This document shows positions 46,569-64,000 of a stretch of 64,000 bases of DNA, one piece after another. Each line of letters opens with the position of its first letter. Positions within the stretch are counted from its first letter, which is position 1. This stretch comes from a virus. Lineage: Duplodnaviria > Heunggongvirae > Uroviricota > Caudoviricetes. Location: IMG/VR virus record IMGVR_UViG_3300026980_000004; one strand, given 5' to 3'. The notes beneath the pieces were generated by a model, which was not told where the DNA came from, did not search any database, and saw only the letters and a program-made list of their open reading frames with translations. The position numbers were made by a program, and so were the translations under genes.

Positions 46569-46739
46569 TAGCTTAAAATAATTCCGTATTTTGTTTTAAT
46601 CATTTCTGAATTAAGAATTTCAGTTTTCCCTGTATTAATATCGTATGCATCTTCGTGAACAATAATATATTCATCCGATCTGATAAGAATAATGTAAATT
46701 AATTCAGGTTCATTCATTAATTGAAATGTCCTAATTGGT

Positions 46740-46961: not shown

Positions 46962-47081
46962 ATTTTAATAATAATAATTTAGCTTTATTAATATATTCTT
47001 CCATTAGCATTTAATTTTGACTAAAAAATCAATATGTGCATATCCTTTATCCGTATTAACAGTTTGAAATAATATAGAAAA

Positions 47082-48827: not shown

Positions 48828-48880
48828 ATATATAAATACTCAATAATTTATTTATTTTCTTAATATTCTAGATTTTTCCA

Positions 48881-49738
48881 TTAAATTTTATTAACTTTGC
48901 TATCACTTAATGAACTTTTATATTTATGATTCCAATCATTAATTTTTTTATCATATTCTTGTTTTAGAATCGCATTCTTATTATTAACATCTTCAACATC
49001 GATTTTATGTTGTGAAATTCTTTTTTGATTTTCTTCAGATACCAAGTTTTTAACTTTAGCTTTAATATAATTTACCTTTTTTTCATAATTCCTATGAACG
49101 TTAGCTAGTTTATTATGGAGTTCATCGTAAAAATCGACTTGGTGGTGTTGTGATATTGTAATAATTGATTTTTCATCTTTCTTTTGTTCAAACCATTCAA
49201 TCGATGGAATATTATGAACTTGAGACCTAAAATTTTCAAGAATTGAATTTTTATGTATGAATTGACCAATATGTGCAGCATGTGCTTCATTATCTAAATA
49301 CTCATTATATTCCTCATCTGTCAATTGATCAAAACCCCACTCTTCATCAACTAATATAAGACTAGGTTCTAATTCGTATTTTGGATTTTCTGGCTTTTCA
49401 ACATTAAAAACAAATTCCTTATCTTTTTCTTCCTCAATTAACTGATCTTTTCTTTTCATAGCATCCATTAAATATGCTTGAAAAGAATGTAATCTAGCCT
49501 TTTCTTCTAATAATTTATCAACATCATATGGTATTTTTTTAGTCTTATATATAATAACGTCACCAAAATATTTATCATATAAACCATATGATTTAAATTT
49601 TTTATTAATGTTTTCAGCTTTTTGATTACACAAATTTGATAATGATTGTGCATCTGACATCGATAGTCCTTCTTTACCTAAATTTCTCATATTTTTTTTA
49701 TTATTTATAATTATTGTGGAAACCCATCTAATTTCCAA
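48881..49738 (-). CDS. coiled-coil protein, hypothetical
   Basis: 285-aa ORF. Confidence 0.4.
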   Translation of the reverse strand: MEIRWVSTIIINNKKNMRNLGKEGLSMSDAQSLSNLCNQKAENINKKFKSYGLYDKYFGDVIIYKTKKIPYDVDKLLEEKARLHSFQAYLMDAMKRKDQLIEEEKDKEFVFNVEKPENPKYELEPSLILVDEEWGFDQLTDEEYNEYLDNEAHAAHIGQFIHKNSILENFRSQVHNIPSIEWFEQKKDEKSIITISQHHQVDFYDELHNKLANVHRNYEKKVNYIKAKVKNLVSEENQKRISQHKIDVEDVNNKNAILKQEYDKKINDWNHKYKSSLSDSKVNKI

Positions 49739-49968
49739 TTTTCATATTCTTCTAAGACTAAATCAATAATTGGTTTAGCATGTTCAAGTATTTTATTATT
49801 TAATTCAACAACCTCTGGAATATCATTACCATTTTCATCCAATGGAATCAAAATAGTACCACCCATTTTATCAATAAAATATGCTTGAATTGCAACTTTT
49901 AATCTGATATCTAATGGTATTTGTTTTAATGATTCTCTAATGTCGAAATTTTCTTCTTTTTTTATCAT
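49711..49968 (-). CDS. hypothetical small protein upstream of the recombinase
   Basis: 85-aa ORF. Confidence 0.3.
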   Translation of the reverse strand: MIKKEENFDIRESLKQIPLDIRLKVAIQAYFIDKMGGTILIPLDENGNDIPEVVELNNKILEHAKPIIDLVLEEYENWKLDGFPQ

Positions 49969-49994
49969 AACGAAACAAAGGTATAATTTATTTT

Positions 49995-50798
49995 TTAAAC
50001 TACCAAATTCACCTTTGACAAAATTTGATTCGAAACATGTGTATAAATTTCTGTTGTTTTATCATTTGAATGTCCTAAAATTTTTTGTATAATTCTTAGG
50101 TCAGTCCCATTTTCTAATAATGCGGTTGCTGATGAATGTCTCAAAGTGTGTATCGAACTTTCATTGTCAATATATTTTTTGTAAATTTTTTGACAACTCC
50201 CTATTGAATATTGTTCATTTTTTTGACCATTGAAAAGATAATTAGTTGGTTTATATTGTTTATAATATAATCTAAGTAATTCTAAAACTGTTTGTGATAG
50301 TGGAACTATCCTATCTTTCCTACCTTTGGCATTTTTAATGTGGATTAACATTTTTTTTGAATCAATATCTTCAATTTTTAGATTTACGACTTCAGAAACT
50401 CTTAAACCAACTGAAAAAGTTACACTTAATATTGATTTGTGTTTAATATTTTCAATTTGAGATAATTTGAATTTTATTAATTCACAATCAATTACTTTAG
50501 GTAATTTCTTTTCTGATCTAGGTCTTTTAAATGACACTTTATCATATTTTTTACCTAAAACTTCTTTATATAAAAATCTAATTGAATTAATTACTTGATT
50601 TTGTTGTGATGTTGATGTGAATTTATAATTATTCAAATAGTGTTTAAAATCATCAGAACTACAATGAATGATTTGCTTATCACCCATGCTATCAATAAAA
50701 TGTTTTATATGTGATATATAATTTTCTTTGGTTCTTGGTGAATAGTTTAGATATATAAACTTTTGTTCACAAATCTTTATAATTTTTTGGTTTTTCAT
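49995..50798 (-). CDS. intI: tyrosine recombinase, putative integron-type integrase
   Basis: C-terminal catalytic region LRHSSATALLENGTDLRIIQKILGHSNDKTTEIYTHV (R..H..R..Y). Divergently oriented next to an attI-like site and a cassette array. Short (267 aa) for a classical IntI. Confidence 0.6.
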   Translation of the reverse strand: MKNQKIIKICEQKFIYLNYSPRTKENYISHIKHFIDSMGDKQIIHCSSDDFKHYLNNYKFTSTSQQNQVINSIRFLYKEVLGKKYDKVSFKRPRSEKKLPKVIDCELIKFKLSQIENIKHKSILSVTFSVGLRVSEVVNLKIEDIDSKKMLIHIKNAKGRKDRIVPLSQTVLELLRLYYKQYKPTNYLFNGQKNEQYSIGSCQKIYKKYIDNESSIHTLRHSSATALLENGTDLRIIQKILGHSNDKTTEIYTHVSNQILSKVNLVV

Positions 50799-50853
50799 GT
50801 TGTAAGATATTGAAAATTAATATATTATGAAAACTTATGTATATATAATAGTT
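50799..50853 (+). other. attI-like recombination site ending in the G|TT crossover triplet
   Basis: Ends in ATATATAATAGTT. The 10 nt GTTGTGGTGC are exactly reverse-complementary to GCACCACAAC at 51108-51117 (R'' of the first attC). Duplicated at 30932-30990. Confidence 0.55.
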
Positions 50854-50861
50854 GTGGTGCA

Positions 50862-51101
50862 TCATAATTCACGTACAGCTACAACAATTCCATTTTTAGG
50901 AGTGCCATCAGAAAAAAGCCCTTCGTGTTCTATTTCTGCAATCATTTTATCACCCCAATGATTATTCTTATAATTCCACAAAGCATCAAACCTATCTTGT
51001 GTAATTCCAACTTTCGGGTGAAACGTATCTTCACTATTTAATGGCTCACAAGTCATTGACTTTTTTCTGCTTAATCCTACTAATTTAAAATCTGATTTCA
51101 T
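50862..51101 (-). CDS. cassette 1 gene (reverse-oriented), hypothetical
   Basis: 79-aa ORF inside the first cassette. Confidence 0.4.
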   Translation of the reverse strand: MKSDFKLVGLSRKKSMTCEPLNSEDTFHPKVGITQDRFDALWNYKNNHWGDKMIAEIEHEGLFSDGTPKNGIVVAVREL

Positions 51102-51107
51102 AATTAA

Positions 51108-51236
51108 CGCACCACAACACAGTATAAAATCAAGCGTGGTTATAGTGTCTTTTTGACCGCTTCGGCTGTTTAAGTAGTTTGTAGCTGGCGGAGAAGTGTT
51201 TGCCGTTCATTCCCCGCCAGCTTTTATACTCGTCCG
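51108..51236 (+). repeat. attC site 1
   Basis: GCACCACAAC...CAGTATAAAATC / GCTTTTATACTCGTCCG|TTAGGC; R' GTTAGGC is the canonical core. Confidence 0.65.
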
Positions 51237-51449
51237 TTAGGCAACATTTTTAACCACTTTACGTATTTTTGTCTTCGCAGTGGTATCATTGTACCTATAT
51301 AAAATATCTTCTATTTCTAATATTTCTTTTTGTGGTAAATTTAAACCAGTTTCAACATACCTACCACTGCTTATACAAGCATCTACAAATTCTTTTAATT
51401 TATCTCTTGTTATCATAATAAAACGTTGCCTAACAAAGTGTATAAGCAA
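51237..51449 (-). CDS. cassette 2 gene (reverse-oriented), hypothetical
   Basis: 70-aa ORF. Confidence 0.4.
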   Translation of the reverse strand: MLIHFVRQRFIMITRDKLKEFVDACISSGRYVETGLNLPQKEILEIEDILYRYNDTTAKTKIRKVVKNVA

Positions 51450-51544
51450 TAGCCGTTAGGCGTTTTAACTATTCCAGTTGTTAATATTTAATTTTGTACT
51501 TCTAATCAAATTCCGTGTTCGGCTACTGCTCATACACTCGTCCG
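51425..51544 (+). repeat. attC site 2
   Basis: GTTGCCTAAC matches the rc of the cassette start TTAGGCAAC. Halves AACAAAGTGTATAAGCAATAGCCG / CGGCTACTGCTCATACACTCGTCCG|TT. Confidence 0.65.
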
Positions 51545-51565
51545 TTGTATGCAATAAAAATTATT

Positions 51566-51734
51566 TAGTACAATTGTGTAACGCATTACTGTAAGCGTTT
51601 TTTGGCGTGTTGCCATAACCAAGTACAATTCTATTTTTATCCCAAGTATCATAAACAACATAACCATTTTTATATCCTAAATTGTGTAGGCAACACTTAG
51701 GGTGTATCTTTTTTAAATTATCTCGTGCTTTCAT
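51566..51734 (-). CDS. cassette 3 gene (reverse-oriented, 56 aa; below the ORF-track cutoff)
   Basis: Translates as MKARDNLKKIHPKCCLHNLGYKNGYVVYDTWDKNRIVLGYGNTPKNAYSNALHNCTK. Confidence 0.3.
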
Positions 51735-51753
51735 AATTTTTACAGTTCGCTAC

Positions 51754-51844
51754 GCCATACAACAAAGTGTATAGCAAATAGCCTATTAATATTCAGTTTT
51801 TAATTCAACGGTCTGTGCTTCGGCTACTTGCCATACACAAGGCG
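51754..51844 (+). repeat. attC site 3 (91 nt)
   Basis: GCCATACAAC...GGCTACTTGCCATACACAAGGCG|TTAGCAG. Confidence 0.6.
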
Positions 51845-51856
51845 TTAGCAGTAATA

Positions 51857-52138
51857 TCATTTTTGTTCGTGAGTAACCCAACCATTTTGTTTTAATTCAG
51901 TTGCGTATTCGTGAATGATTTTATACTGCTCATATTGTTCATCTGTGCAATGATATGAATTGAATTTTTGCAAAAACATTTCATAAACTATCATTTCAAC
52001 AATCTTTGGTATCCCACTATATGCTTCCATAAGTGCTTTATAATTTTTTTCCTGACCAAATGTTTTTGCAAAAAACAAAATGGCATTTTCTACTTGTTCT
52101 TTACTTGCTTTCATATTTTTATATTTATCGTTAAACAA
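51857..52138 (-). CDS. cassette 4 gene (reverse-oriented), hypothetical
   Basis: 93-aa ORF. Confidence 0.4.
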   Translation of the reverse strand: MFNDKYKNMKASKEQVENAILFFAKTFGQEKNYKALMEAYSGIPKIVEMIVYEMFLQKFNSYHCTDEQYEQYKIIHEYATELKQNGWVTHEQK

Positions 52139-52147
52139 AAATGATAC

Positions 52148-52239
52148 ATACTGCTAACAGCGTATATGAGAAGTGGCACAGAAACATTTGTGCTAAATTT
52201 CAACATTCTACAAGTGCCACTTCTCATATACGCAAAACG
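52148..52239 (+). repeat. attC site 4 (92 nt)
   Basis: TACTGCTAAC (rc of cassette start TTAGCAGTA). GCGTATATGAGAAGTGGCAC / GTGCCACTTCTCATATACGCAAAACG|TT. Confidence 0.65.
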
Positions 52240-52250
52240 TTAGTGGCAAT

Positions 52251-52529
52251 TTAGTCATCAGACATACCACTTCTACATTTTATATCTTCCAAATCCCACA
52301 AAAAAAGTAGTGTGTTATTAAAGGTCGCATCATACCAAGGATATTTTGGATGGTCTTTGAATTGTTTTGCGTTCTTCAAAGCTAACTTTTTTTGTTCGGT
52401 ATATTTTTCAATCAAAGCATCAATAAAACTACCACTAACATCAAATAAATCCAATACTTGCTTTAGTGCTTCATCAGCAGTCATTTCTCCATTTTTAACC
52501 TTGTGCTTATAATAATCTGTTGCTTTCAT
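52251..52529 (-). CDS. cassette 5 gene A (reverse-oriented), hypothetical 92-aa helical protein
   Basis: ORF paired with a neighbouring 92-aa ORF in the same cassette (two-gene cassette; possibly a TA-like pair). Confidence 0.4.
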   Translation of the reverse strand: MKATDYYKHKVKNGEMTADEALKQVLDLFDVSGSFIDALIEKYTEQKKLALKNAKQFKDHPKYPWYDATFNNTLLFLWDLEDIKCRSGMSDD

Positions 52530-52569
52530 AACCGTACTGTATTTATTTGCATTCCGTTGTAGGTAATAG

Positions 52570-52848
52570 CTATTCAGGGTTCAGTTCTCTAAATAACTTA
52601 TATATGTTTTCGGGCTTTGTGAATAAGTCATTAACCCCAGTCAGCACTCTAACAACTGTGTATAATGCTCGTAGGTAGTCGCTATTATCATTGAAGTAAA
52701 TTGCGGAAACTGCTGCATTTAGTGCTTCCTTACTTGCATCGCTACTACCTACAACACCAAATAAAACCAATAGCCTGTCTTTTGCTTCTTGCTTGCTTAT
52801 TTCGTGTTTACAAAGTTCATCTATAATTGAGTCTATTTTCTTTTCCAT
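52570..52848 (-). CDS. cassette 5 gene B (reverse-oriented); start trimmed to the internal Met MEKKIDSIIDEL
   Basis: The upstream part of ORF-track entry 52570-52935 is low-complexity and overlaps a + strand gene. Confidence 0.35.
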   Translation of the reverse strand: MEKKIDSIIDELCKHEISKQEAKDRLLVLFGVVGSSDASKEALNAAVSAIYFNDNSDYLRALYTVVRVLTGVNDLFTKPENIYKLFRELNPE

Positions 52849-52875
52849 ACGGCTACTGTTTTTATTTGTGGAACG
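52849..52875 (+). repeat. degenerate/truncated attC 5 retaining only the R' end (AACG|TTGTGGGTAATATT)
   Basis: GTTGTGGGTA is reverse-complementary to TACCCACAAC at 53402-53411. Confidence 0.4.
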
Positions 52876-52930
52876 TTGTGGGTAATATTGAAAAACTGAA
52901 ATTGAAAAGAATTGATTGGATATTATTATT

Positions 52931-53396
52931 GGCATACATCGGAATCCACATAGTTATCGGATTGATTTATGTGCTAAATCTTTATGACCGAGAATGGATT
53001 CAGGATTTCTATTTTGTAATTCCATTTATTTATGTGTTTTTGATATTTGACATTTATCATAAACGATTTTGGAATAACAGAATTCTGATGATTTGGGGAA
53101 TTATCGGAGTAATTCAATTAGTCATTTATTATAACTATAGTGATTTACCTGAAATTCAAACCATGAATGGAAATGATTTGATTTGGTTAAAAGCATTGCC
53201 TTTGACAATCCTGACCTCTTATATCTTAAATTTGATTAATAAAAAAGTTTATGGAGATAACTTTATAGTAACCGCATTTCGACTAGACCCGAAACGGATT
53301 GACCAAAAAGACGGAAGAAAGTTGAGACCAGCTGACTATATTTTCTCTGTAAGCGGATTTATGATTATAATATTTGGAACAGTATTTACGAATTAA
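52931..53396 (+). CDS. cassette 6 gene: multi-TM membrane protein (start uncertain; TTG at 52931 or a later Met)
   Basis: ORF 52827-53396 in the track overlaps the opposite-strand gene; hydrophobic throughout. Confidence 0.35.
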
Positions 53397-53400
53397 AATA

Positions 53401-53579
53401 CTACCCACAACAATGGCTATAGTTCATTGCTACTCTCCTGCTTCAATTTAAAATTTTTCTTACTTTTAATACTTAAACATAAAGAGGAATGATTTCGTTA
53501 CGCTGTTTGCTTCGCACGTGTGGAAAAAACTAGCAACGCTTCGCAAACCGCCAACCGCAACGAAACCATAGCCCAAACC
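53401..53579 (+). repeat. attC site 6 (179 nt; near-identical to attC 8)
   Basis: ACCCACAACAATGGCTATAGTTCATTGC ... GCAACGAAACCATAGCCCAAACCG|TTGCCAG. Confidence 0.65.
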
Positions 53580-53626
53580 GTTGCCAGTAATTTAACCGAA
53601 CTAAAAAGCATTAATATATTGATTAA

Positions 53627-54400
53627 ATGAAAAGCCAAATTTTAGTTTATTTTCTTTCAATCTTCATACTCTTTTCTTGTAAAAACAAAGACAATGAATT
53701 GACCGAAATGAATTCATTTTTACAAGCTAATTTTGAATTCAACAACCGAACTCTGAATAAGAATAAAGGAGATTATTATAGAATAATTGAGGAGATGCCT
53801 TCTCGAGAAATTGAAAAACTGAATGAATTGGATTCAAGATTTGAATCGTTAATTTTTGCAATTGATAGAGCAATCAAGAATAAAGAAAAAAATCTGGAAA
53901 ACATTATTGCGGAATCCAACGAAATTCTAAATGAGGTTCCGAAAATTGTAGACAATAGAAAAGACTATTTATTACCAGAATTTAAACAGCCGAAAACTGA
54001 CTCTAAAGATTTAAGTCTAAAATACATAAAGAATAGACTTGTAATTGCAATGGCTTATGCATTTGAATATGCGAGCCGACAAACTTATTCTGTTGATGGA
54101 TTGTATAAAGTTGACATAGACAGTATAATCTCAAGAAAAACAGACAGCGGAATTAAACTTACCTTGACTTCAAGGTTTGGACAACCAATAAAAGAAAACA
54201 GACACATTTTGATTAATAAAATCGAACTCAATGGAAAAGAACAAAAAATTGATTTTGAACTTAAAGATAATTACTCTTTTGCGGACATTGAATTAGATTC
54301 ATTACAATCTGGAATTTATAAAATGAACGGAATTTTACGTTTTTATCATAGAGAACAAAAATTTGACATACCGTTCGAAAAGGAATTTAAAGTGGAATAA
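53627..54400 (+). CDS. cassette 7 gene: lipoprotein (Bacteroidetes-type lipobox LFSC)
   Basis: Signal peptide MKSQILVYFLSIFILFSCKNK. Confidence 0.5.
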   Translation: MKSQILVYFLSIFILFSCKNKDNELTEMNSFLQANFEFNNRTLNKNKGDYYRIIEEMPSREIEKLNELDSRFESLIFAIDRAIKNKEKNLENIIAESNEILNEVPKIVDNRKDYLLPEFKQPKTDSKDLSLKYIKNRLVIAMAYAFEYASRQTYSVDGLYKVDIDSIISRKTDSGIKLTLTSRFGQPIKENRHILINKIELNGKEQKIDFELKDNYSFADIELDSLQSGIYKMNGILRFYHREQKFDIPFEKEFKVE

Positions 54401-54403
54401 AAA

Positions 54404-54530
54404 CTACTGGCAACAACGTGTATAGCTCATTGCGGCTGAATTCCTAATCGGAATTCATTGCAATTTGCTATCTTTGGTACACGGCGGAAAATCCTCGCGG
54501 ATTTCCCGCAACGAGCCATACACAAGACCG
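54404..54530 (+). repeat. attC site 7
   Basis: TACTGGCAAC (rc of the preceding GTTGCCAGTA). GGCAACAACGTGTATAGCTCATTGCGG / CCGCAACGAGCCATACACAAGACCG|TTGGC. Confidence 0.7.
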
Positions 54531-54547
54531 TTGGCATTAATTTTAGA

Positions 54548-55183
54548 ATGACAGAATACAGAATAAAAGTTATTAAACAGAAGAGACTATTGATTTCTAT
54601 TTTCCTGGTGTCGATAATCTTCCCTTTTTGTTTTCTGATTCCAACTCAATTTGACTTAATTATCTGGAAAATAACTGTTCCAATTTTGACAGTTGGAATT
54701 CTTGGGATTCTAATGTTTTATTTCACTGTTGGACAATTAAGAATAACACTTAAAAATAGAAAACTCGATTTTCAATGGAAACGAAAACCAATATTGAATT
54801 TCAAAGAATATAACTCAATCGGAATTGATGAAATCACAACTATAATAGTTGAACAAGGAATATTTTTACGGAAATTAAAAACAGAAAACTCTGAAATCGA
54901 ACTTGGTGGAATAAAATCCAAAAATGCGGATTCATTAAAATTGCTGAATTTATTAAAGTCAGAGACAAGTGTTAAACCAAAAGATAGTTGGGACGTTTGG
55001 AAAGAGCGTGGTTGGTTGAAAATCGCATATCAAATTAACCTTTTAATTTTAATTATAGCAACTGGCATAGTAATTACATTTATCATTCTAAAAGGATTTG
55101 ACTCAAAGCTATTGTTGTTTATTCCGTTAGTTTTAAGCCAACTATTTTTTAGCCATTTACAAATGAAAGACAAACTGAAATAA
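54548..55183 (+). CDS. cassette 8 gene: multi-TM membrane protein (start trimmed to ATG outside the attC)
   Basis: MTEYRIKV...; several hydrophobic helices. Confidence 0.5.
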   Translation: MTEYRIKVIKQKRLLISIFLVSIIFPFCFLIPTQFDLIIWKITVPILTVGILGILMFYFTVGQLRITLKNRKLDFQWKRKPILNFKEYNSIGIDEITTIIVEQGIFLRKLKTENSEIELGGIKSKNADSLKLLNLLKSETSVKPKDSWDVWKERGWLKIAYQINLLILIIATGIVITFIILKGFDSKLLLFIPLVLSQLFFSHLQMKDKLK

Positions 55184-55188
55184 AAAAC

Positions 55189-55367
55189 TAATGCCAACAC
55201 TGGCTATAGTTCATTGCTACTCTCCTGCTTCAATTTAAAATTTTTCTTACTTTTAATACTTAAACATCAAGGGGAATGATTTCGTTACGCTGTTTGCTTC
55301 GCACGTGTGGAAAAAACTAGCAACGCTTCGCAAACCGCAAACCGCAACGAAACCATAGCCCAAACCG
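55189..55367 (+). repeat. attC site 8 (179 nt)
   Basis: TAATGCCAAC is the rc of GTTGGCATTA at the cassette start; over 90% identical to attC 6. Confidence 0.7.
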
Positions 55368-55392
55368 TTGGGCACCATATAAAAATTTAGAA

Positions 55393-55878
55393 TTGACCGA
55401 TAAAGTACCTTCATATCCCTCAGAATTATCTAATGAAAGACTTGCCGAAATCAAAAAGGAGATTAATGGAGATATTCGGATTTATCTCAAGAATTGTTCA
55501 GAAAACTATCTTGAATACATAAATGCTGCTCAAAAGCTATTTCCAGAAGTTTATGAACGAATGAAAAAGTTTGACTCGGAATTCGATATGACTGCATACT
55601 TATCAGAACTGGACGAAGCAAAAAAGTCAAAAGATGTAGGAACGGAATATGGACTTTTAAAAAATGGAGTGGAAATGAGAATTTATACACCTGCTACTTA
55701 CCATAGGTTAGCCATGCTTCATGAAAAAAATGGACGCTTGGAAAAAGCAAGAGATGTTTGTCTGACTTGGTTTGAAACTGACTTTTGGAAGTTGCCTAAT
55801 ACTTGGAAAGGTAGTTTAAGAATTTTGGACAGACTGGAAAAAATTGAAAAAAAATACGGTGCCCAACACCGGCTATAG
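55393..55878 (+). CDS. cassette 9 gene: hypothetical soluble protein (TTG start)
   Basis: 161-aa ORF. Confidence 0.45.
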   Translation: MTDKVPSYPSELSNERLAEIKKEINGDIRIYLKNCSENYLEYINAAQKLFPEVYERMKKFDSEFDMTAYLSELDEAKKSKDVGTEYGLLKNGVEMRIYTPATYHRLAMLHEKNGRLEKARDVCLTWFETDFWKLPNTWKGSLRILDRLEKIEKKYGAQHRL

Positions 55879-55987
55879 TTCATTGCGGCGGAATTTCCTC
55901 TCGGAAATTCCTGCGTATTTGCTAACTTTGGTTTACGGCGGAATAGTTCTGCCGAACCATTCCGCAACGAAACCATAGCCCAAACCG
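55858..55987 (+). repeat. attC site 9
   Basis: GGTGCCCAAC is the rc of GTTGGGCACC. Confidence 0.7.
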
Positions 55988-56003
55988 TTGGCGTTAATTT
56001 AAA

Positions 56004-56435
56004 ATGAATTACATAAAGACTAACATATTGCTATTTATAATGTTCATTCCGTTCATCAATTTTGGACAGGAAAAGGACGGAGAATGTGTGGAATATGAAC
56101 CGATTGAAATGTACAATTTGAGAATAGCAATAATTGAAAAACAGAATTTAGACGTTTGGCCAAGTATTGTGGAAATTAAAAATCTAACGGAATTAAATAC
56201 TAAAAGAAAAGACTCTCTGATTTTATTCATTGCCGAAACCGATAACGGAGACAAATTACGAATGACAAATTCTTCGGACTTGAGCAAGTTTGCGGAAATG
56301 GAATATAAGAATGATTGCAGACAAGATGGGACGATATTGACCGACTTAAAACTTGGGAAAATTAATCTGACTGAAATGAAAGCGGAAATATTTTGTCGGA
56401 AAGAAAAATACGCTGAACTGAAAATAAAAAACTAA
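56004..56435 (+). CDS. cassette 10 gene: secreted protein (signal peptide)
   Basis: 143-aa ORF with N-terminal hydrophobic leader. Confidence 0.45.
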   Translation: MNYIKTNILLFIMFIPFINFGQEKDGECVEYEPIEMYNLRIAIIEKQNLDVWPSIVEIKNLTELNTKRKDSLILFIAETDNGDKLRMTNSSDLSKFAEMEYKNDCRQDGTILTDLKLGKINLTEMKAEIFCRKEKYAELKIKN

Positions 56436-56617
56436 CGCCAACAATAGCTATAAGTAATGCGGAAAGTCTGGGCAAAATCGAAGGTTTAGGCTTGTTTTCT
56501 CGCTCGCAATTTATATATTTATCGGATGAAATTAATAAATTAAAAATTGCTCGCTTGGGGTCGTGTTGAATTGAAAGGTTTTGTCTTTTTTAGTCCGCAC
56601 TACTCATAGCCAAACCG
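56433..56617 (+). repeat. attC site 10 (185 nt)
   Basis: TAACGCCAAC is the rc of GTTGGCGTTA. Confidence 0.65.
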
Positions 56618-56628
56618 TTGGCAACAAT

Positions 56629-57144
56629 ATGAAAATCAACGCAGATTCCTACATAACAAATAGTCTTGTTTACCGATTGAGTAATTACTCATACGGAATA
56701 GGAATTTTATTGACTTTAATACTGCTGACTTTTTATTGGACAGATAAAAACAATCCTGAAATAGGAACTATATTCTTGATATTCGGGATTCTAATATTTT
56801 TATCACTCATAATAGGACGAATCGCTCGAATTGTTTCGGGCGGATATTTTTGGCATCATATCAAAAATGACTTTAAGATAAATCAAGACTCTATCGAATT
56901 AGAAAATGAACGATATGAATTCGATAAAATAAAATTGCTCAAGTTTAACATAACGGATTATGAAAAACGAAAACCGTTCTTATATCAACATATTCTAAAA
57001 GACACACGGAATATGATAAAATTTGTGACTGATGAAAATATTATTCAGGTACATTTCAAACCCGAAAATGAATCTGAAAATGAATATTTGACTGAATTAA
57101 AAAAAATGTGGAATGCTAAAAATACTGTTGCCAACAATGTATAA
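56629..57144 (+). CDS. cassette 11 gene: membrane protein (start trimmed to the Met outside the attC)
   Basis: MKINADSYITN...; two TM helices. Confidence 0.45.
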   Translation: MKINADSYITNSLVYRLSNYSYGIGILLTLILLTFYWTDKNNPEIGTIFLIFGILIFLSLIIGRIARIVSGGYFWHHIKNDFKINQDSIELENERYEFDKIKLLKFNITDYEKRKPFLYQHILKDTRNMIKFVTDENIIQVHFKPENESENEYLTELKKMWNAKNTVANNV

Positions 57145-57255
57145 CCGCAATTACGGTGGATTCGACTACGTCCGAATCCACTCGGAATTGCTAACGTCAG
57201 TTCTAAACCTAAAATTTACGCATATTAACCCGTAACTGACGGTTATACGAGACCG
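57126..57255 (+). repeat. attC site 11
   Basis: TGTTGCCAAC is the rc of GTTGGCAACA. Confidence 0.7.
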
Positions 57256-57270
57256 TTGCCAAACATTTGA

Positions 57271-57858
57271 ATGAAAATAGTCGGTACAAATATAAATTTC
57301 GTTTTACTCGACATAAATAGCGTAAAAGAAAAGAATGAATTAATTCTGACCTTGACCAACATCAGTTATTTACCGAGAGAGTTAAAGCCAAATGAATATA
57401 AAAAATTCAAGCTGACTGTTTATGGAATCGAACAATTGGAATTAGCAAAAGAGTCGATTTCGGAATTTCTAAATGACTACGTAGACATTGAACAAACCGA
57501 AAACAAAACCCTTGAATTCTGGAGTGACCAACACAAAATTGGAGAATTTGGTTTTGAAAAATTCAAAGAAGAAGTTGCGGAATTGGACAAAGCCGATTGG
57601 ATAGAAAACTATAAACAAGCATTGAAAATATATTATCGAGATTATGACCAACAGATAAAACTATCTCGATTAGAAAATGAGTTTTTAAGTAAGTTAGAGA
57701 ATCTGATAAAAGACGAGGTTAGGAAATCGGACAAAAAACTGGAATTCTTTAATGAAAACAGTTCAAAATCTGAATCAATAACTGACAAACTAAATCTCTT
57801 AAAAAGATTGGATAATATTAAAACGGAGTATCTGACAAAGTGCAAAAACGTGGAATAA
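57271..57858 (+). CDS. cassette 12 gene: hypothetical protein
   Basis: 195-aa ORF. Confidence 0.45.
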   Translation: MKIVGTNINFVLLDINSVKEKNELILTLTNISYLPRELKPNEYKKFKLTVYGIEQLELAKESISEFLNDYVDIEQTENKTLEFWSDQHKIGEFGFEKFKEEVAELDKADWIENYKQALKIYYRDYDQQIKLSRLENEFLSKLENLIKDEVRKSDKKLEFFNENSSKSESITDKLNLLKRLDNIKTEYLTKCKNVE

Positions 57859-57866
57859 AAAAACGT

Positions 57867-57994
57867 TTGGCAACAATGTATAACCGCAATTACGGCGGAT
57901 TCGACTACGTCCGAATCCACTCGGAATTGCGAGCGCCAGTCCTTAACCGAAAAACATTAACTTTAAACCCGTAACTGACGGTTATACTAGACCG
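57867..57994 (+). repeat. attC site 12 (about 90% identical to attC 11)
   Basis: TTTGGCAAC is the rc of GTTGCCAAA. Confidence 0.7.
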
Positions 57995-58006
57995 TTGTAA
58001 ACAATT

Positions 58007-58507
58007 ATGAAAAAAATCCTGACTTTAATTCTGATTTCAGTTTTTATAGGTAGTTGCAAGACTTCCGAAAGAAAACCAAAATCGAATGCGGACGAATTAC
58101 AACAGCGGATTTTAGGAAACGTAATGGGATTAAATCGATTGGAACTAACCGCAAGTTTTGACGAATGCGGAGAATGGGGCGGACACGATGAGAAATTTGA
58201 TATTTATCGTGAAAATAAAATACTCTTTGCGGAATACGTTGAGGATATTGTTGACTGCAAAGACCCTTATTCAGAAAACAGAAAAATAGCGGAACGGAAA
58301 ACTTTACGGCTGAATGAAACGCACGAAAAAGCTATCGTGAAATATCTGAATTCTTTACTGGAAATTGGATTAAAAATGGAATTACCCTATCACGCTGGAA
58401 CTCATTATAGTGCTGTAATGAATGACTCAACTATGATATTAAAGTATCACTCTGTGAAAAGCAGTTGGAATGAATACGAAAAACTAAAAGCTGAATTATT
58501 AAAATAA
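58007..58507 (+). CDS. cassette 13 gene: lipoprotein (lipobox FIGSC); cassette duplicated at 63880 onward
   Basis: MKKILTLILISVFIGSCKT signal. Confidence 0.5.
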   Translation: MKKILTLILISVFIGSCKTSERKPKSNADELQQRILGNVMGLNRLELTASFDECGEWGGHDEKFDIYRENKILFAEYVEDIVDCKDPYSENRKIAERKTLRLNETHEKAIVKYLNSLLEIGLKMELPYHAGTHYSAVMNDSTMILKYHSVKSSWNEYEKLKAELLK

Positions 58508-58509
58508 CT

Positions 58510-58640
58510 GTTTACAACAACGGCTATAGTTCATTACGGCTGAAATTCCTAATCGGAATTTCGAGCCTTTTTGCTAAATTTATGGTTACGGCGGAATGAT
58601 ACTCGCGTACCATTCCGTAACGAAACCATAGCCAAAACCG
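58510..58640 (+). repeat. attC site 13
   Basis: TTTACAAC is the rc of GTTGTAAA. Confidence 0.7.
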
Positions 58641-58665
58641 TTAGCTGTAATTTAAACCAAACTTT

Positions 58666-59370
58666 GTGGCAGAAAAGAAAGACATCGAAAAACTAATAGT
58701 TCAGAATAAAAAAAGCAATCTGAAAAACCATTGGAACGATGCATTTTTCTACAACACGACAAAGTACAGCGGAGAAATTAAGCCGAATGAACTTTTGATT
58801 TGGCGTTCATCGCATTTTTTACGTAGTGCATATCCTATATTCCATCTGACTTTTGACCAAAACAATAAACTTAATGGAATAAAAAAAGAGAAAAATCCTT
58901 ACCACAAACTACTGAATAAATTGACAATTGGATTTTTAATTGTGTTAATAACAGGTCTGTTCATAACAACTGAATTGAAAACCGCAATTATTGGAACAAT
59001 CGGAATCGCAGTAATTGGAACGTTATTGAGTTTGGTTTTAAGAAAATCTAAAAGATATGAAATCAAACTTTTGACTGACGAGCTGAAAGAGGCCATTGAA
59101 AATATTGAACAGTTGAATAATCCCGAACTGATTAATAAACCAAAATCAGAATCAGAATCAAAAACAGAAAAGGTTAAAGAATGGACTTTTACAAAAGTTT
59201 TGACAAGGCTTCTGCTATATCCTTTTTGCCTACTGATTTTATGGTTTTCAATTACTGGGTTTTTACCAGAAGGAAAAACATTATATGGACTATTTGGAAT
59301 AGTAGTCGCATTGGCATATCCAATAACTGACATACTGCTGATATTCGGAAAAAATAAAAACTACAGCTAA
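58666..59370 (+). CDS. cassette 14 gene: multi-TM membrane protein (GTG start)
   Basis: 234-aa ORF. Confidence 0.45.
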   Translation: MAEKKDIEKLIVQNKKSNLKNHWNDAFFYNTTKYSGEIKPNELLIWRSSHFLRSAYPIFHLTFDQNNKLNGIKKEKNPYHKLLNKLTIGFLIVLITGLFITTELKTAIIGTIGIAVIGTLLSLVLRKSKRYEIKLLTDELKEAIENIEQLNNPELINKPKSESESKTEKVKEWTFTKVLTRLLLYPFCLLILWFSITGFLPEGKTLYGLFGIVVALAYPITDILLIFGKNKNYS

Positions 59371-59546
59371 CAACGGCTATGAGTAATGCGGGCTTAGGTA
59401 CTGAATTCAAACTTTCTGCTTCTTTTTCCGCTCGCAATTTGTATATTTATTGAGAAAAATAATAAACATAAAAATGGCTCGCTATGGTCAGTGCTGAATT
59501 GAAACTAATAGATTTATTTGCCCCGCACTACACATAGCCTGAACCG
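59365..59546 (+). repeat. attC site 14 (182 nt)
   Basis: AGCTAAC is the rc of GTTAGCT. Confidence 0.65.
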
Positions 59547-59567
59547 TTGTACGCAATTTGAGAAACG

Positions 59568-60179
59568 ATGAGTAAAAAATCAATATTGATTTCTATATTA
59601 ATAATCGGAATTGGAATTTCTCTTTGGTATTTCGGATTTTTTAGTCGATATAATTATTTGACTGCCAAAACTGATATTGCAAAAAATAACCCTCAAATAG
59701 TTTATGTTGGAGAGTCAATGCTAACACCATCGGATTTAAACACTGTGAGTAAAAAGTATGGTTTTGAAATTATTGGTTTTGGTTGCACATTGAGCGCAGT
59801 AGAGCAAAACGGAATTGAAATTTATAATTCCCAAATGGACAACTATCTGGACAAACTAAATGGAATTGGATGGAAATCTGAATACAAAAAAGAGATTGAT
59901 TCTCTAATGAAACTGACTAATATTCCAAAAAGCGCATTTTGGATTGAAAAAAACGGAAATGGATTTTGGTATAATGTGGATTTTATGCACAGTCACAAGA
60001 ACAACGCAAGAATTTCAATTTTCGACAAATTTGGCGAACTAATTACGGATGGAAAATTTATTTTGGTATGTCCGACAGACGAAATTGAATTTATGGACGA
60101 TTTGGAAAAACAAATTGACTTTTATGACGGAGAGAATATTCAATTAAAAAGCAATTGTTACTTATTAAAAAGAAAATAA
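59568..60179 (+). CDS. cassette 15 gene: N-terminally anchored/secreted hypothetical protein
   Basis: 203-aa ORF. Confidence 0.45.
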   Translation: MSKKSILISILIIGIGISLWYFGFFSRYNYLTAKTDIAKNNPQIVYVGESMLTPSDLNTVSKKYGFEIIGFGCTLSAVEQNGIEIYNSQMDNYLDKLNGIGWKSEYKKEIDSLMKLTNIPKSAFWIEKNGNGFWYNVDFMHSHKNNARISIFDKFGELITDGKFILVCPTDEIEFMDDLEKQIDFYDGENIQLKSNCYLLKRK

Positions 60180-60184
60180 AAACT

Positions 60185-60314
60185 GCGTACAACAACGTGT
60201 AAGCGCAATAACGGCTGAATTTCCTAATCGGAAATTCAACTCGTTTTGCTAAATTAGGTGCGTCAGCGGAAAGTACTCGCGTACTTTCCCGTTACTGACG
60301 CTTACACAAAACCG
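60185..60314 (+). repeat. attC site 15
   Basis: GCGTACAAC is the rc of GTTGTACGC. Confidence 0.7.
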
Positions 60315-60434
60315 TTACCTGCAAGCTGAAAAAAGAGCCAACCGCACAAAACAAAGAGTGCCGAAAAAGGCACACATTGTTTTTTTGCCAACGCTCGGAA
60401 TAACATTAAATTTGAGAAAAAACATAAAATATAT

Positions 60435-63400
60435 ATGAGCTTATTTCAGAACTCTGTTCTAAACAAATATTTAAAAGGATTGGAGTCCGAAAAAGTTACG
60501 CAAGCATACGAGCGATTTACAAGTCATTTCCATAATCCAACCATTCAAGAAAACATTCGAAACTCGAAAGAGGAACAATATCAAGGTGAATTTCTAATTG
60601 ACCTTTTTGTGAATGTTTTGGGCTACACGAAAAATCCAACGCCTGAATTTAATCTGACCACTGAATTAAAAAACATAAAAGGCTCTAAAAAGACAGATGG
60701 AGCAATTCTAAAAGGTGACAAAGCACTTGCAGTAATTGAACTGAAAGGAACAAACACAACCGATTTAAGTAAAGTAGAAACCCAAGCATTTGGATATAAA
60801 AACAACCAGCCAGGTTGTAATTATGTAATTACTTCCAACTTTGAAAAATTGCGTTTTTACATAGACAACGCAGTTGATTTTGAGGAATTTAATCTTTTTC
60901 AGCTTTCAAAAGAACGTTTTGATATACTTTGGCTTTGTCTTTCATCCGATTATCTGTTAAAGGACATTCCGAAAAAGATTAAAGATGAATCCTTAACCCA
61001 AGAGGAAAACGTCACTAAAAAACTTTACAAAGATTACGCTTCATTTAGAAACGAGATTTTTGATGCCATTCAAAAAGAGAATCCTGAATATGACAAACTA
61101 ACTTTATTCAAGAAAACGCAGAAATTACTCGACCGTTTTCTATTTATCTTTTTTGCAGAAGATAGATTATTATTGCCACCAAACTCAATTCGTTCCATCG
61201 TAAACCAATGGACTGATTTACGAGATAAATATGACGAGTATTTTCCTTTGTACGACCGATTTAAGAAATATTTCGGTTATATGAACACAGGACACAAAGG
61301 ACAACAGCACGATATTTTCGCCTATAATGGTGGCCTCTTTGCACCTGACGAGATTTTGGACAACATCAAAATCAATGACGATTTACTTTACAAACACACA
61401 GTTAATTTAAGTAACTACGATTTTGAAAGTGAAGTAAGTGTAAATATACTTGGTCACATTTTTGAACACTCGTTAAACGACATTGACGAAATTCAAGCAG
61501 AGATTCAAGGAATAGAAACCGAACAGAACAAAACCAAGCGTAAAAAAGACGGTGTTTTTTACACGCCAAAATACATTACCAAATACATTGTAGATAATAC
61601 AGTTGGTAAACTTTGTGAGGAAAAGAAAATTGAATTTGACATACAAGAAGCTGAATACGAAAAAGAACGAAAGGGAAGACAAAAAGCGACCTTAAAAAAA
61701 CTAACTCAAAAGTTAGAAGATTACAGAAAGTGGTTATTACAGATTACCATTTGCGACCCAGCTTGTGGTAGTGGAGCTTTTCTAACTCAAGCATTGGAAT
61801 TTCTAATTTCAGAACATCAATACATTGACGAATTACAAGCTAAACTTTTTGGAGATGCAATGATATTAAGCGAAGTTGAAAATGCTATTTTGGAAAACAA
61901 TATTTATGGTGTTGATATTAATGAGGAAAGTGTTGACATTGCAAAACTATCATTGTGGTTAAGAACTGCACAAAAAGGCAGAAAATTAACCTCATTAAAC
62001 AACAATATAAAATGTGGCAACAGTTTAATTGACGACCCAACTTTTGCTGGAGAAAAAGCTTTTAATTGGCAAAATGAATTTCCAGAGGTATTTGCAAAAG
62101 GTGGTTTTGATATTATTATTGGAAATCCCCCTTATGTTCAGCATAGAAGATTAATGGAATATTCAAGTCACTTTAAAAACCATTTTTCAGTTTATACTGG
62201 CACATCTGATTTAAGTGTATATTTTTATGAACAGGCAATAAATATTTTAAAAGACAACGGATTTTTAGCTTACATTAATACAAATAAGTTTTTTAACACC
62301 GAATATGGCTTACCATTAAGAAACTACTTAACTAATTATCAAATCAATACAATAATCAATTTTGAACAAGTGTCAATTTTCAAAGACGCATTGGTTTCAA
62401 GTACAATAAACCTAATTCGAAAATCAAATCCATTAAGTATCGTAAATTATATAGAGTTCAATAAAGAAAAACTTGCAGATTTAGATTTTCAAAACGAGCT
62501 AATTACTCGAAAGAGAGAAATAACCAACAATTATTTAAAGAAAAACAGTTGGTTGTTTACTGACCCTAAAATTTCTTTAATCATTAAAAAGATAAAAGGT
62601 AAGGGTAAAGCATTAGGCGATATTGAGGATTTAGAAATTAAAAGAGGTATTACTACAGGCTATGATGATGCATTTTTGATAGAAAAATCGCATTTATTAA
62701 ACACTTCCTATCCTGAAATTTCAAAATCAATTTTGCGAGGAAAAGACATAAAAAGATATGAGCTATCAGAAAGTGGTTTAAGTTTACTATTTATACCTTG
62801 GCATTTCCCATTACACTTGGATGAATCTATAAGTGGTGCTAGTCAAGATGCAGAAGAATCTTTGAAAATAAAATATCCTCAACTTTACGAACATTTGCTA
62901 AAGCATAAGGATAGGTTATCTAACAGGAACAAGTCAGAAACTGGTAAGAGATATGAATGGTATGCTTTACAAAGGTGTGCAGCTTCATATTATGAACTTT
63001 TTGATAAACCTAAAATAGTTTGGGGTTTAATAACTGGTAATTGGGGATTTAGTTTAGACGAATCTGGAAATTTTCTAACTAGTTCGTCATTCTTTTTGAC
63101 TTCGAATAATATAAATCTTAAGTTTCTTTTAGGTTTGTTAAACTCAAAATTGTATAAATTTTATTTCAAGAATGTGGGTGAGCAAACTGCTGGCGGAGCT
63201 TATGTATTGAAAAAAACTTCGGTTGAAAAATTTATTTATCCATCTATAAAAGAAAATAATCTATTGCTTGAAAACATCAATCAAATGAGAATATTAAGCA
63301 ATAATTTGAATAAATATGAAGCAAATTTTTTAATGCTTGTAAAATCCAAGTTTGGTGATTTAAAATTAACAACAAAACTTCGTAGCTGGCACAATTTAGA

Positions 63401-63650
63401 CTTTAATCTATTTTTAAAAGATTTAGAAAAAGTACGAAAAAAATATGCTAAAGAAAATGAAACTGAATACAATAAGATTTCATTGAGTGAACAAGCGGAA
63501 TGGATGCAGTATTTTAATGAGCAGAAACAAAAAGCAGATGAATTAAAAAGAAAAATTGAAAAAACGGACAGAGAAATTGACCAAATGGTTTATGAATTGT
63601 TCGCATTGACAAAAGAGGAAATAAACATTGTGGAAGAAGCCACTGCATAA
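60435..63650 (+). CDS. Type IIG restriction-modification enzyme (fused PD-ExK endonuclease, gamma-class N6-adenine methyltransferase, target-recognition region)
   Basis: N-terminal D...ELK nuclease motif (TDGAILKGDKALAVIELKG). MTase motif I DPACGSGAFL. Motif IV GNPPY. 1071 aa. Confidence 0.75.
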   Translation: MSLFQNSVLNKYLKGLESEKVTQAYERFTSHFHNPTIQENIRNSKEEQYQGEFLIDLFVNVLGYTKNPTPEFNLTTELKNIKGSKKTDGAILKGDKALAVIELKGTNTTDLSKVETQAFGYKNNQPGCNYVITSNFEKLRFYIDNAVDFEEFNLFQLSKERFDILWLCLSSDYLLKDIPKKIKDESLTQEENVTKKLYKDYASFRNEIFDAIQKENPEYDKLTLFKKTQKLLDRFLFIFFAEDRLLLPPNSIRSIVNQWTDLRDKYDEYFPLYDRFKKYFGYMNTGHKGQQHDIFAYNGGLFAPDEILDNIKINDDLLYKHTVNLSNYDFESEVSVNILGHIFEHSLNDIDEIQAEIQGIETEQNKTKRKKDGVFYTPKYITKYIVDNTVGKLCEEKKIEFDIQEAEYEKERKGRQKATLKKLTQKLEDYRKWLLQITICDPACGSGAFLTQALEFLISEHQYIDELQAKLFGDAMILSEVENAILENNIYGVDINEESVDIAKLSLWLRTAQKGRKLTSLNNNIKCGNSLIDDPTFAGEKAFNWQNEFPEVFAKGGFDIIIGNPPYVQHRRLMEYSSHFKNHFSVYTGTSDLSVYFYEQAINILKDNGFLAYINTNKFFNTEYGLPLRNYLTNYQINTIINFEQVSIFKDALVSSTINLIRKSNPLSIVNYIEFNKEKLADLDFQNELITRKREITNNYLKKNSWLFTDPKISLIIKKIKGKGKALGDIEDLEIKRGITTGYDDAFLIEKSHLLNTSYPEISKSILRGKDIKRYELSESGLSLLFIPWHFPLHLDESISGASQDAEESLKIKYPQLYEHLLKHKDRLSNRNKSETGKRYEWYALQRCAASYYELFDKPKIVWGLITGNWGFSLDESGNFLTSSSFFLTSNNINLKFLLGLLNSKLYKFYFKNVGEQTAGGAYVLKKTSVEKFIYPSIKENNLLLENINQMRILSNNLNKYEANFLMLVKSKFGDLKLTTKLRSWHNLDFNLFLKDLEKVRKKYAKENETEYNKISLSEQAEWMQYFNEQKQKADELKRKIEKTDREIDQMVYELFALTKEEINIVEEATA

Positions 63651-63750
63651 GCCATACACATTTGAAATTCGCTCAAGCCAACGCTACGCCAAAAATTGCA
63701 AAAGAGTATGTCTTGCCAACGCTGAAAACCAAGCTGAACAGAAAAAAAGC

Positions 63751-63879
63751 CAGCTTACAACAACGTATATAAAAAATAGCGGTTTAGTCGCTTAATCAAA
63801 AGAAAATGAATAAATTAGAGGTCAGTTATAATCCGAAAAGTTAGTGCGTAAAATCCGCTACTTTTCATATACAAGACCG
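63751..63879 (+). repeat. attC site 16
   Basis: CAGCTTACAAC is approximately the rc of GTTACCTGCAAGCTG. ACGTATATAAAAAATAGCGG / CCGCTACTTTTCATATACAAGACCG|TT. Confidence 0.6.
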
Positions 63880-63892
63880 TTGTAAACAATTA

Positions 63893-64000
63893 TGAAAAAA
63901 ATCCTGACTTTAATTCTGATTTCAGTTTTTATAGGTAGTTGCAAGACTTCCGAAAGAAAACCAAAATCGAATGCGGACGAATTACAACAGCGGATTTTAG
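63893..64000 (+). CDS. start of a second copy of the cassette 13 lipoprotein gene (truncated by the window end)
   Basis: 63872-64000 is identical to 57986-58114. Confidence 0.5.

Follow-up and report, generated by a model that had tools for sequence, protein, structure and literature searches.

The DNA analysed here, hereafter the window, is a stretch of 64,000 nt from the IMG/VR virus record IMGVR_UViG_3300026980_000004 (Caudoviricetes), and an exact look-up identified a contig of 276,998 bp as its source. It carries the gene of a Xer-like tyrosine recombinase, an attI-like insertion site beside this gene and, from there to the window end, a series of genes separated by attC-like hairpins, i.e., an array of integron-type gene cassettes, here numbered C1 to C18. 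The initial annotation took the whole as an integron platform with at least 17 cassettes inside a phage genome. In our reading, which we consider probable, the window is composite: positions 1-52877 come from a ~266-kb jumbo phage, which has a marine member of the Flavobacteriaceae as its host and an integron-like platform of its own, positions 52878-64000 are a cassette array of the host chromosome, and the two were joined via one cassette, C6, most likely by an assembly artefact. The phage platform is real and lineage-wide, yet it is not a canonical integron. Hence the recombinase, the attI-like site and the array in a large phage stand, since they are also present in an independent assembly of 265,825 bp, and the canonical integron does not.

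The phage array and the host array have one cassette in common

As the initial annotation had it, the recombinase gene (49995-50798, minus strand) lies beside a GTT triplet at 50851-50853, and the array is richer in guanine plus cytosine (GC; ~33% from ~50.8 kb to the window end) than the preceding backbone and the recombinase gene itself (both ~25%). A contig from the European Nucleotide Archive, NODE_55 (265,825 bp, 84x coverage), matched positions 40000-52877 of the window at 100% identity, a stretch that includes the six phage cassettes C1-C6 (50852-52875, plus strand), and diverged from it exactly at the G|TT of the sixth hairpin site. Beyond that point NODE_55 carries 17 more sites with small open reading frames (ORFs) co-oriented with the recombinase gene, so that the phage's own array has at least 23 sites (6 + 17). 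The rest of the window's array (C7-C18, 52876-64000, plus strand) was 100% identical to other contigs. Bacterial contigs at ~25x and ~8-9x coverage matched it at 100% from 52801 or 52875 onward, and NODE_89 (134,620 bp) was identical from 58566 to the window end, continued with eight more cassettes and then ran into genes for a TetR regulator, an epimerase, a protein sorted by the type IX secretion system (T9SS; Por_Secre_tail) and a GH92 glycosidase. NODE_89 is a Bacteroidota (Flavobacteriaceae) chromosome, and two thirds of the window's array is host chromosome. The window thus holds six phage cassettes in place of the 17 or more first proposed, and the supposed contiguity with the phage gives way, for most of the array, to a prophage-host junction or a chimera.

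The two parts also appeared separately in other assemblies. The Logan contig L067 ends at 52877, contig L061 begins at 52875, and JGI holds separate contigs of 265,845 bp and 134,640 bp. Decisive was a further JGI contig, L130 (3,178 bp), which reads X-C6-C7, where X stands for host-type cassettes before C6; it matched the window from 52555 to 53511 and the phage contig only from 52555 to 52877. Cassette C6 (323 nt, 52555-52877, plus strand) is 100% identical in the phage and bacterial arrays and is the join point of the hybrid contig. In the phage it is followed by a different cassette, C7'. Hence the phage order C5-C6-C7' and the bacterial order X-C6-C7 have exactly one cassette in common, C6, and the window order C5-C6-C7 is a hybrid path through the 323-nt C6 repeat. 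The lengths agree with this: the source contig exceeds NODE_55 by 11,173 bp (276,998 - 265,825) and the JGI contig of 265,845 bp by ~11.15 kb, and the window has 11,123 nt of host-type sequence. The source contig thus probably consists of the entire phage genome, opened at C6, and of an 11-kb tail, which ends in a second copy of cassette C14. Of this copy only the start (63880-64000, plus strand) lies in the window; the first copy is at 57995-58640 (57983-58642 was 99.8% identical to positions 5303-5962 of contig L053). The second C14 copy is a probable assembly break point.

The hybrid would be real if the phage had integrated as a prophage in the host cassette array, via integrase-mediated recombination of one hairpin with another or homologous recombination across C6. 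We regard this as unlikely, although several features suit it. The switch falls exactly at G|TT, all 17 sites have one polarity, as integration between directly oriented sites needs, and X-C6-C7 could be the scar of an imprecise excision. Other observations weigh against the composite reading as we give it. Contig L067 passes the left C6 boundary unbroken and without branching and stops at the right one, which also fits real C5-C6-C7 molecules, and the length of 276,998 bp fits an integrated prophage, i.e., the whole phage plus host flank, equally well. The array of this phage runs past the 10-kb flank. A covariance model built from the hairpin arms alone missed known sites, which have a loop of 40-130 nt, and the calls across loci therefore rest on our own scanner (see below). 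Finally, the functional link between recombinase and hairpins rests on their co-localisation. For the join itself we nevertheless lean towards a false join across C6, because both parental arrangements exist around a 323-nt repeat, which suffices for such a join, because the coverages in one sample are more than 3-fold apart (84x for the phage vs 25x for the array), and because a single contig, from one of several assemblies, links phage to host; two other assemblies have the phage at closed length (265,825 and 265,845 bp) apart from the host (134,620 and 134,640 bp). The C6 repeat is assumed to be longer than the reads of these short-read assemblies, as it probably is. The reciprocal order X-C6-C7' was not found, in a search made only via the 93% cluster representative of the cassette after C6, which lies in other phage arrays and so carries little weight here.

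A phage sub-population might also have captured a block of at least 12 host cassettes after C6 and truly packaged it. IntI-type enzymes can move several contiguous cassettes as one circle, the polarity is kept, the junction lies at G|TT, and C6 attests to traffic between both arrays. However, coverage of the host-type segment is like that of the host, the segment runs on into chromosomal genes in NODE_89, related phage arrays are without canonically oriented cassettes (132 ORFs vs 18, the latter mostly tiny), and the source contig ends ~30-50 nt after the window with no return to phage sequence, so that we find such a capture very improbable.

Under every one of these readings, the identity of C6 in both arrays, with its exact G|TT ends, shows recent recombination of a cassette between the phage array and the host array. 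As the C6 gene has the inverted, phage-type orientation, the data suggest that it moved from the phage to the host. The 100% identical cassette is direct evidence, at the sequence level, that a phage and a bacterial chromosome have recently exchanged a cassette, and it ties the uncultured phage to a Flavobacteriaceae host. In addition, such arrays break or mis-join metagenome assemblies, and viral contigs that end in arrays need checking.

The hairpin sites resemble attC with a mirrored asymmetry

Sites were called with a purpose-written anchored-stem scanner, for which the opposite strand, the backbone and shuffled sequence served as controls; an earlier heuristic that demanded a 7/7 stem was dropped as too strict. 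From 50851 to the window end, 17 imperfect palindromes of the form AAC...GTT, of 94-188 nt, were found, all with plus polarity. Those of the phage cassettes C1-C6 (with 7-nt boxes) lie at 51112-51242, 51428-51550, 51757-51850, 52152-52245, 52433-52562 and 52749-52881; those from C7 onward at 53405-53586, 54408-54536, 55192-55373, 55861-55993, 56436-56623 and 57129-57261; and those from C13 onward at 57868-58000, 58512-58646, 59365-59552, 60187-60320 and 63755-63885. Sixteen sites scored between 20 and 35 and the first one 19.5, and no match of at least 20 was observed on the minus strand or in the 50-kb backbone, so that the description of genes separated by hairpins up to the window end holds, far above chance.

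Cassette ends were complementary in the way first described. In 14 of the 17 cassettes the 10 nt from GTT and the 10 nt that end at the next AAC are exact reverse complements of each other, and two further cassettes are complementary over 8 nt, which makes 16 of 17 junctions over 8-10 nt. Non-cognate pairs of ends matched over a mean of 4.0 nt, and the one pair among 289 that reached 8 nt or more is the duplicated cassette. The exception is the 3.5-kb restriction-modification (RM) cassette (60315-63879), the sole one without end complementarity (GTTACCTGCAAG vs CCAGCTTACAAC). Some sites are also very similar to each other, as the initial annotation had noticed, e.g., 53390-53583 and 55177-55370 (94.8% identity).

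All sites hold their AAC and GTT triplets in the invariant motifs AACA and CGTT, and the stem of the hairpin comprises 6-9 bp, then 2-4 bp after a first interruption and ~6 bp after a second one, followed by a variable loop. When 23 sites from the window and seven other contigs were compared, 92.4% of the cells were paired vs 27-37% with slid partners, and 57 cells were compensatory vs 16 in shuffles. The minus strand folded more stably, by 0.9-5.7 kcal/mol, at 16 of 16 sites tested, which agrees with the bottom-strand bias of canonical sites (PMC5027507). In canonical attC sites both arms have a spacer of 5-6 nt, and on the bottom strand the L'' arm has two or three extrahelical bases (Nivina et al., PMC5027507). 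By contrast, the R'' arm has an unpaired spacer of 1-3 nt and the R' arm one of 5-6 nt, both in 167 phage sites and in the bacterial arrays. Bulges of the G16 or T23/24 type are missing from the L'' arm; where the stem is interrupted, there are either A.C mismatches of the top strand (on the bottom one, G.T wobbles) or one extra base on the R' arm. These hairpins are thus attC-like, yet the asymmetry of their unpaired bases mirrors that of canonical attC.

End complementarity by itself cannot separate the 5' box from the 3' box. The crossover was placed at the G|TT of the 3' box because of three kinds of boundary: cassettes shared between unrelated phage arrays (3 pairs) lose their homology 2-5 nt past the GTT of the right box, the two copies of the duplicated cassette (57995 onward and 63880 onward) have different sites upstream, and the C6 homology has the ends described above. 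A crossover at the 5' AAC box, which would give the phage cassettes the canonical order of gene and then site, was rejected, since shared cassettes end at the 3' GTT and the GTT of attI is on the same strand.

The array of the window has much in common with canonical integrons (class 1, and those of the Vibrio and Xanthomonas chromosomes). In both, a tyrosine recombinase gene lies beside the insertion site, mostly single-gene cassettes end in an imperfect AAC/GTT palindrome with crossover at the G|TT of the 3' box, each cassette start and its own 5' box are complementary, folding is more stable for the bottom strand, and duplicated cassettes and near-identical sites occur within an array.

A conserved insertion site beside the recombinase gene

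The attI-like site (50799-50853) has its crossover point at G|TT 50851-50853, 53 nt from the ATG of the recombinase gene. These ~53 nt were kept in every related locus that has sequence there. The conserved stretch ends in ...TATATATAATAG|TT (AAC|TATTATATATA in the sense of the recombinase gene), similarity between loci stops exactly at the AAC/GTT triplet, and the sequence beyond it is unrelated.

A second copy, attI-2 (30888-30990, with G|TT at 30988-30990), was 90% identical over 104 nt to 50750-50853 and includes a remnant of ~50 nt of the 5' end of the recombinase gene. It is located ~20 kb from the main platform, in undisputed phage backbone, and is followed by a cassette (30989-31258, plus strand) with an attC-like site at 31164-31258, where GTTGGCAA at 30988 is complementary to TTGCCAAC at 31163-31170. 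With a scanner score of 19.5 this hairpin was the best outside the main array on either strand, and it was judged a real extra site. The sequence after attI-2, up to ~32.3 kb, is GC-richer and resembles degraded cassettes, with at least one cassette and site. An 84-aa backbone ORF nearby (32034-32288, minus strand) was 75% identical to a cassette ORF in the array of an unrelated phage contig (L007, 9154-9384), a similarity which suggests that it may be a former cassette. Loci L036-L040 in other phages resemble attI-2 and appear to be secondary sites that have no integrase gene.

These features also bear on a reading in which the recombinase is an ordinary enzyme for lysogeny or dimer resolution, and the hairpins are unrelated terminators or repetitive extragenic palindromic (REP)-like repeats. 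Its relatives in Cellulophaga phage Ingeline and Polaribacter phage Freya are annotated integrases with no convincing arrays beside them, and an Rfam scan of the window matched no family, the hairpins included; Rfam itself contains no family for attC. Nonetheless, neither terminators nor REP elements would explain a 10-nt complementarity between the start of each cassette and its own hairpin. Nor would they account for homology blocks with ends at G|TT, for the junction beside the recombinase gene, whose conservation in the related loci breaks off at the triplet, or for the strict polarity (167 vs 12 sites, see below), and terminator-like T-runs were not found in the platform. These observations already contradict this reading, which we find the hardest of all to credit. 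A sigma-70 promoter scan of the platform gave 17 sites, with 17.5 expected.

The recombinase lacks the IntI-specific domain

The recombinase (267 aa; PF00589, 2.4e-36; PF13495) is an integron-integrase analogue in which the catalytic residues R133, K158, H217, R220, H243 and Y252 are intact. The initial annotation had assigned it to IntI, and this assignment failed on inspection. The best curated profile was that of archaeal XerA (NF040815, XerA_Arch; 177.1 bits vs a cut-off of 220), slightly better than the integron integrase profile TIGR02249 (157.6 bits, 4.5e-46, vs a cut-off of 265), to which the match was split in two stretches. PRK15417 scored 103 bits (1.8e-29; cut-off 435), XerD 146.9 (cut-off 329.6) and XerC 144.2 (cut-off 335), so that the protein fell below every curated cut-off tested, whether for IntI, XerA, XerC or XerD. 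Among solved structures the best relative was the Pyrococcus XerA-type enzyme (entry 4a8e, 1.7e-32), which aligned in one piece. The second-best, VchIntIA (2a3v), gave two separate alignments (query residues 20-172 to IntI 19-174 and 210-258 to IntI 260-308), and in the gap between them 37 query residues stand opposite 85 residues of IntI. Moreover, no insertion was observed between residues 192 and 217 (YLFNGQ to HTLRHS) in 11 members of the family. As judged from these alignments, the IntI-specific additional domain is absent, and the difference of 37 vs 85 residues at its site places the recombinase outside the IntI family as now defined. In VchIntIA, according to structural work, this domain contacts the extrahelical bases. 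A domain-less enzyme that is paired with sites without canonical extrahelical bases is a coherent combination.

A canonical integron (IntI, attI and attC) that happens to lie in a phage would be in keeping with the partial matches to TIGR02249 and PRK15417, with VchIntIA as the second-best solved relative, and with attI-like and attC-like sites that have a G|TT crossover. We hold it to be highly unlikely, because scores below both IntI cut-offs, XerA-type proteins as best profile and best structure, the missing domain, the mirrored spacer asymmetry without canonical extrahelical bases and the inverted ORFs of the phage cassettes all speak against it. With the Xer recombinases (XerA and XerC/XerD) the enzyme has in common the domain layout, a similar size (~267-290 aa) and the lack of an extra domain; unlike them, it falls below the Xer equivalog cut-offs, is not at a dif-type site, and is tied to hairpin arrays and an AAC/GTT junction.

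The platform is found in a lineage of large phages

Homologues of the recombinase at 62-81% identity were present in 40 IMG/VR contigs of up to 430 kb, and thousands more, at up to 91% identity, in metagenomes. In 35 of the 40 IMG/VR loci at least one attC-like site lies upstream of the recombinase gene, and 29 have arrays of 2-19 sites, which always have the same polarity relative to that gene. Over 509 kb of phage loci without redundancy, 167 sites point in the array direction vs 12 in the opposite one, and a shuffled control gave 4 in 256 kb. Where the flank is present, the arrays end inside 10 kb, with phage gene families on both sides. In locus L030, for example, a family B DNA polymerase gene adjoins the recombinase gene, and in L013 genes for a nuclease and a Dda-like helicase surround the array. 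The identical arrangement was recovered in three contigs from different samples (84, 103 and 256 kb). The genes that neighbour the recombinase homologues differ from those of the window.

Cassette genes in canonical integrons are promoterless, read away from attI and are driven from the Pc promoter. In contrast, 132 of 150 cassette ORFs in the related phage arrays read towards the recombinase gene, and the other 18, mostly tiny, read the opposite way. The phage platform thus also departs from canonical integrons in that its cassette genes have the inverse orientation, which is that of the recombinase gene, and in that its carrier is a jumbo phage.

In two loci (L029, 8948-11607, and L034, 10404-13627) a second array of 6-8 sites with the same polarity was observed several kb downstream of the recombinase gene, which is truncated in L034.

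Among isolated phages, Cellulophaga phage Ingeline and Polaribacter phage Freya have the nearest relatives of the recombinase, which are annotated as integrases and share 36-38% identity with it. That these two phages carry the same platform was considered and rejected, as they have no conserved attI and only weak, scattered sites. In ten Freya isolates (MT732463-MT732472) the position of the integrase gene shifts from 50 to 4147 as the genome grows from 43,978 to 48,920 bp; this is compatible with a variable region upstream of the gene, although the start points of these circular records may differ instead. In that region of Freya_10 (L041), only weak attC-like matches were detected.

Contents of the cassettes

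The small ORFs of C1-C6 lie on the minus strand, i.e., they are inverted relative to the polarity of the sites and point to the recombinase gene, and those of C7-C18 have the canonical orientation. A search of the products of C1-C16 against Pfam and PHROG gave no matches, except weak ones to TPR and DUF1398 below threshold. The ORFs of C5 and C6 begin ~90 nt inside their own attC-like sites (52433-52562 and 52749-52881), so that each hairpin would be partly coding, provided that the ORFs are called correctly. The idea that both proteins are paralogues with a common N-terminal motif was discarded, since BLASTP found no similarity between them.

From C7 onward the cassettes code for bacterial proteins, which share clusters of at least 90% identity with proteins of Croceibacter, Olleya, Mesoflavibacter, Spongiivirga and Mangrovimonas. 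For the C14 lipoprotein the identity was 80-90% to its counterparts in Croceibacter, Tenacibaculum and Nonlabens, and its 90% cluster also contains proteins of Olleya, Mesoflavibacter and Spongiivirga. As the initial annotation had recognised, an RM enzyme is among the cassettes: C17 codes for a Type IIG/IIL enzyme of the Eco57I/MmeI type (60435-63650, plus strand; PF07669 Eco57I, 9.9e-48; MmeI_Mtase, TaqI_C and MmeI_N), which clusters at 90% with Mangrovimonas yunxiaonensis WP_036117801.1. This cassette has a leader and a trailer, non-coding stretches of ~120 nt with repeated GCCAACGCT motifs, and it may be fused or decayed.

Comparison with bacterial arrays and with published phage integrons

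Arrays of the host type occur in other Bacteroidota. The chromosome of Nonlabens sp. MB-3u-79 (CP025116) carries 14 sites of the same architecture with canonically oriented genes, and the same architecture and end complementarity were found in Croceibacter metagenome-assembled genomes (MAGs) and in one Saccharicrinis chromosome. These chromosomal clusters resemble the phage platform in both respects, and the host array of the window has C6 in common with it at 100% identity; the clusters differ from it in the canonical orientation of their genes. No recombinase gene was found within 10 kb of the homologous Croceibacter array, or at the distal end of the array in NODE_89. In the Croceibacter MAG contigs L046-L049, a full Type III RM pair (Mod and Res) and a helix-turn-helix gene are located between attC-like sites, again with no recombinase within 10 kb.

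More distant relatives of the recombinase were observed as well. In Chitinophagaceae loci (L086, L096, L099, L102-L104, L107 and others) they have ~35-38% identity, often with several per genome, and an attC-like hairpin of 85-88 nt lies on the same strand, at a spacing from the recombinase start that is constant (~2.28 kb), often with more sites downstream; this geometry is unlike that of the phage platform and may belong to another kind of mobile unit. In the chromosome of Saccharicrinis sp. (OY760657, 1.35 Mb; L124), a partial relative with 37% identity lies amid 11 attC-like sites of phage-like polarity.

The initial annotation held that integrons in virulent T4-like phages are essentially unreported, which was too strong, as attC clusters in virulent phages have been in print since 2023. 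Qi et al. 2023 (PMC9892861) ran IntegronFinder on 10,705 phage genomes and obtained three complete integrons, one In0 and 17 small attC-site clusters that have no integron integrase (CALINs). The complete integrons were canonical, host-type ones in temperate phages or prophages, and one CALIN was in a Polaribacter phage. Those CALINs are like the present platform in that attC-type sites and cassettes lie in a phage, including one of a Flavobacteriaceae genus (Polaribacter), and in that DNA methyltransferase or RM genes are among the cassettes. However, they have few attC sites (a minimum of two, and three in the one detailed) and no cognate recombinase, whereas here a non-IntI recombinase, encoded by the phages throughout a lineage, goes with a conserved attI and with arrays that reach at least 23 sites. 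In the survey with IntegronFinder 2.0 (PMC9024848), only In0 elements and one complete integron (Salinibacter) were reported for Bacteroidetes. In full-text searches we found no report of a domain-less recombinase that a phage encodes together with large arrays and a conserved attI, and no account of Flavobacteriaceae attC arrays, although either may have been described elsewhere.

A model for cassette movement and its implications

By analogy with the chemistry of IntI, we propose that the recombinase would excise cassettes as circles by acting on two folded, single-stranded hairpins, and that these circles would enter at G|TT, either in attI or in another hairpin. The exchanged strand would be the one with 5'-AAC at the R' box, here presumably the minus (bottom) strand. 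The choice of strand could be set by the asymmetric spacer, which is 3-4 nt longer on the R' arm, with no domain that reads extrahelical bases. Transcription of the cassette genes would presumably occur together with the leftward phage genes and not from a Pc promoter. That the phage cassette genes serve in counter-defence or host takeover is plausible.

A bolder extension, which we put forward as a rather doubtful one, is that the domain-less recombinase of a widespread group of large Bacteroidota phages keeps a bank of phage cassettes, acts on the integrase-less chromosomal arrays of the host, moves cassettes in both directions and could even integrate the 266-kb genome into a host array by recombining hairpin with hairpin, in which case the hybrid contig would be real. 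If this were true, phage enzymes would be the missing recombinase of the Bacteroidota attC clusters. 

Apart from this extension, cassette recombination through single-stranded hairpins may not need the IntI-specific domain, which would widen the definition of integrons and explain why profile-based surveys report almost no integrons in Bacteroidota. Jumbo phages, for their part, would carry dozens of small accessory genes as a modular bank that is open to exchange.

The phage backbone and its other features

Megablast with the backbone and with the array gave no match to GenBank phages, the window's own sequence was not recovered when genome and metagenome collections were scanned for exact patterns, and a scan for tRNAs in the window found none. 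The backbone codes for a gp23-type major head protein (phrog_138), which has 30-40% identity to those of uncultured phages of 480-595 kb and of other jumbo phages, and for a ClpB-like ATPase and a nucleotidyltransferase. An element of the IS607 family, with a serine-recombinase TnpA and a TnpB (47082-48827, minus strand; NF033518 transpos_IS607, 8.6e-49; NF040570 guided_TnpB, 1.1e-50), lies ~1.2 kb from the recombinase gene; it belongs to the context, outside the platform, and is also present in the independent phage contig.

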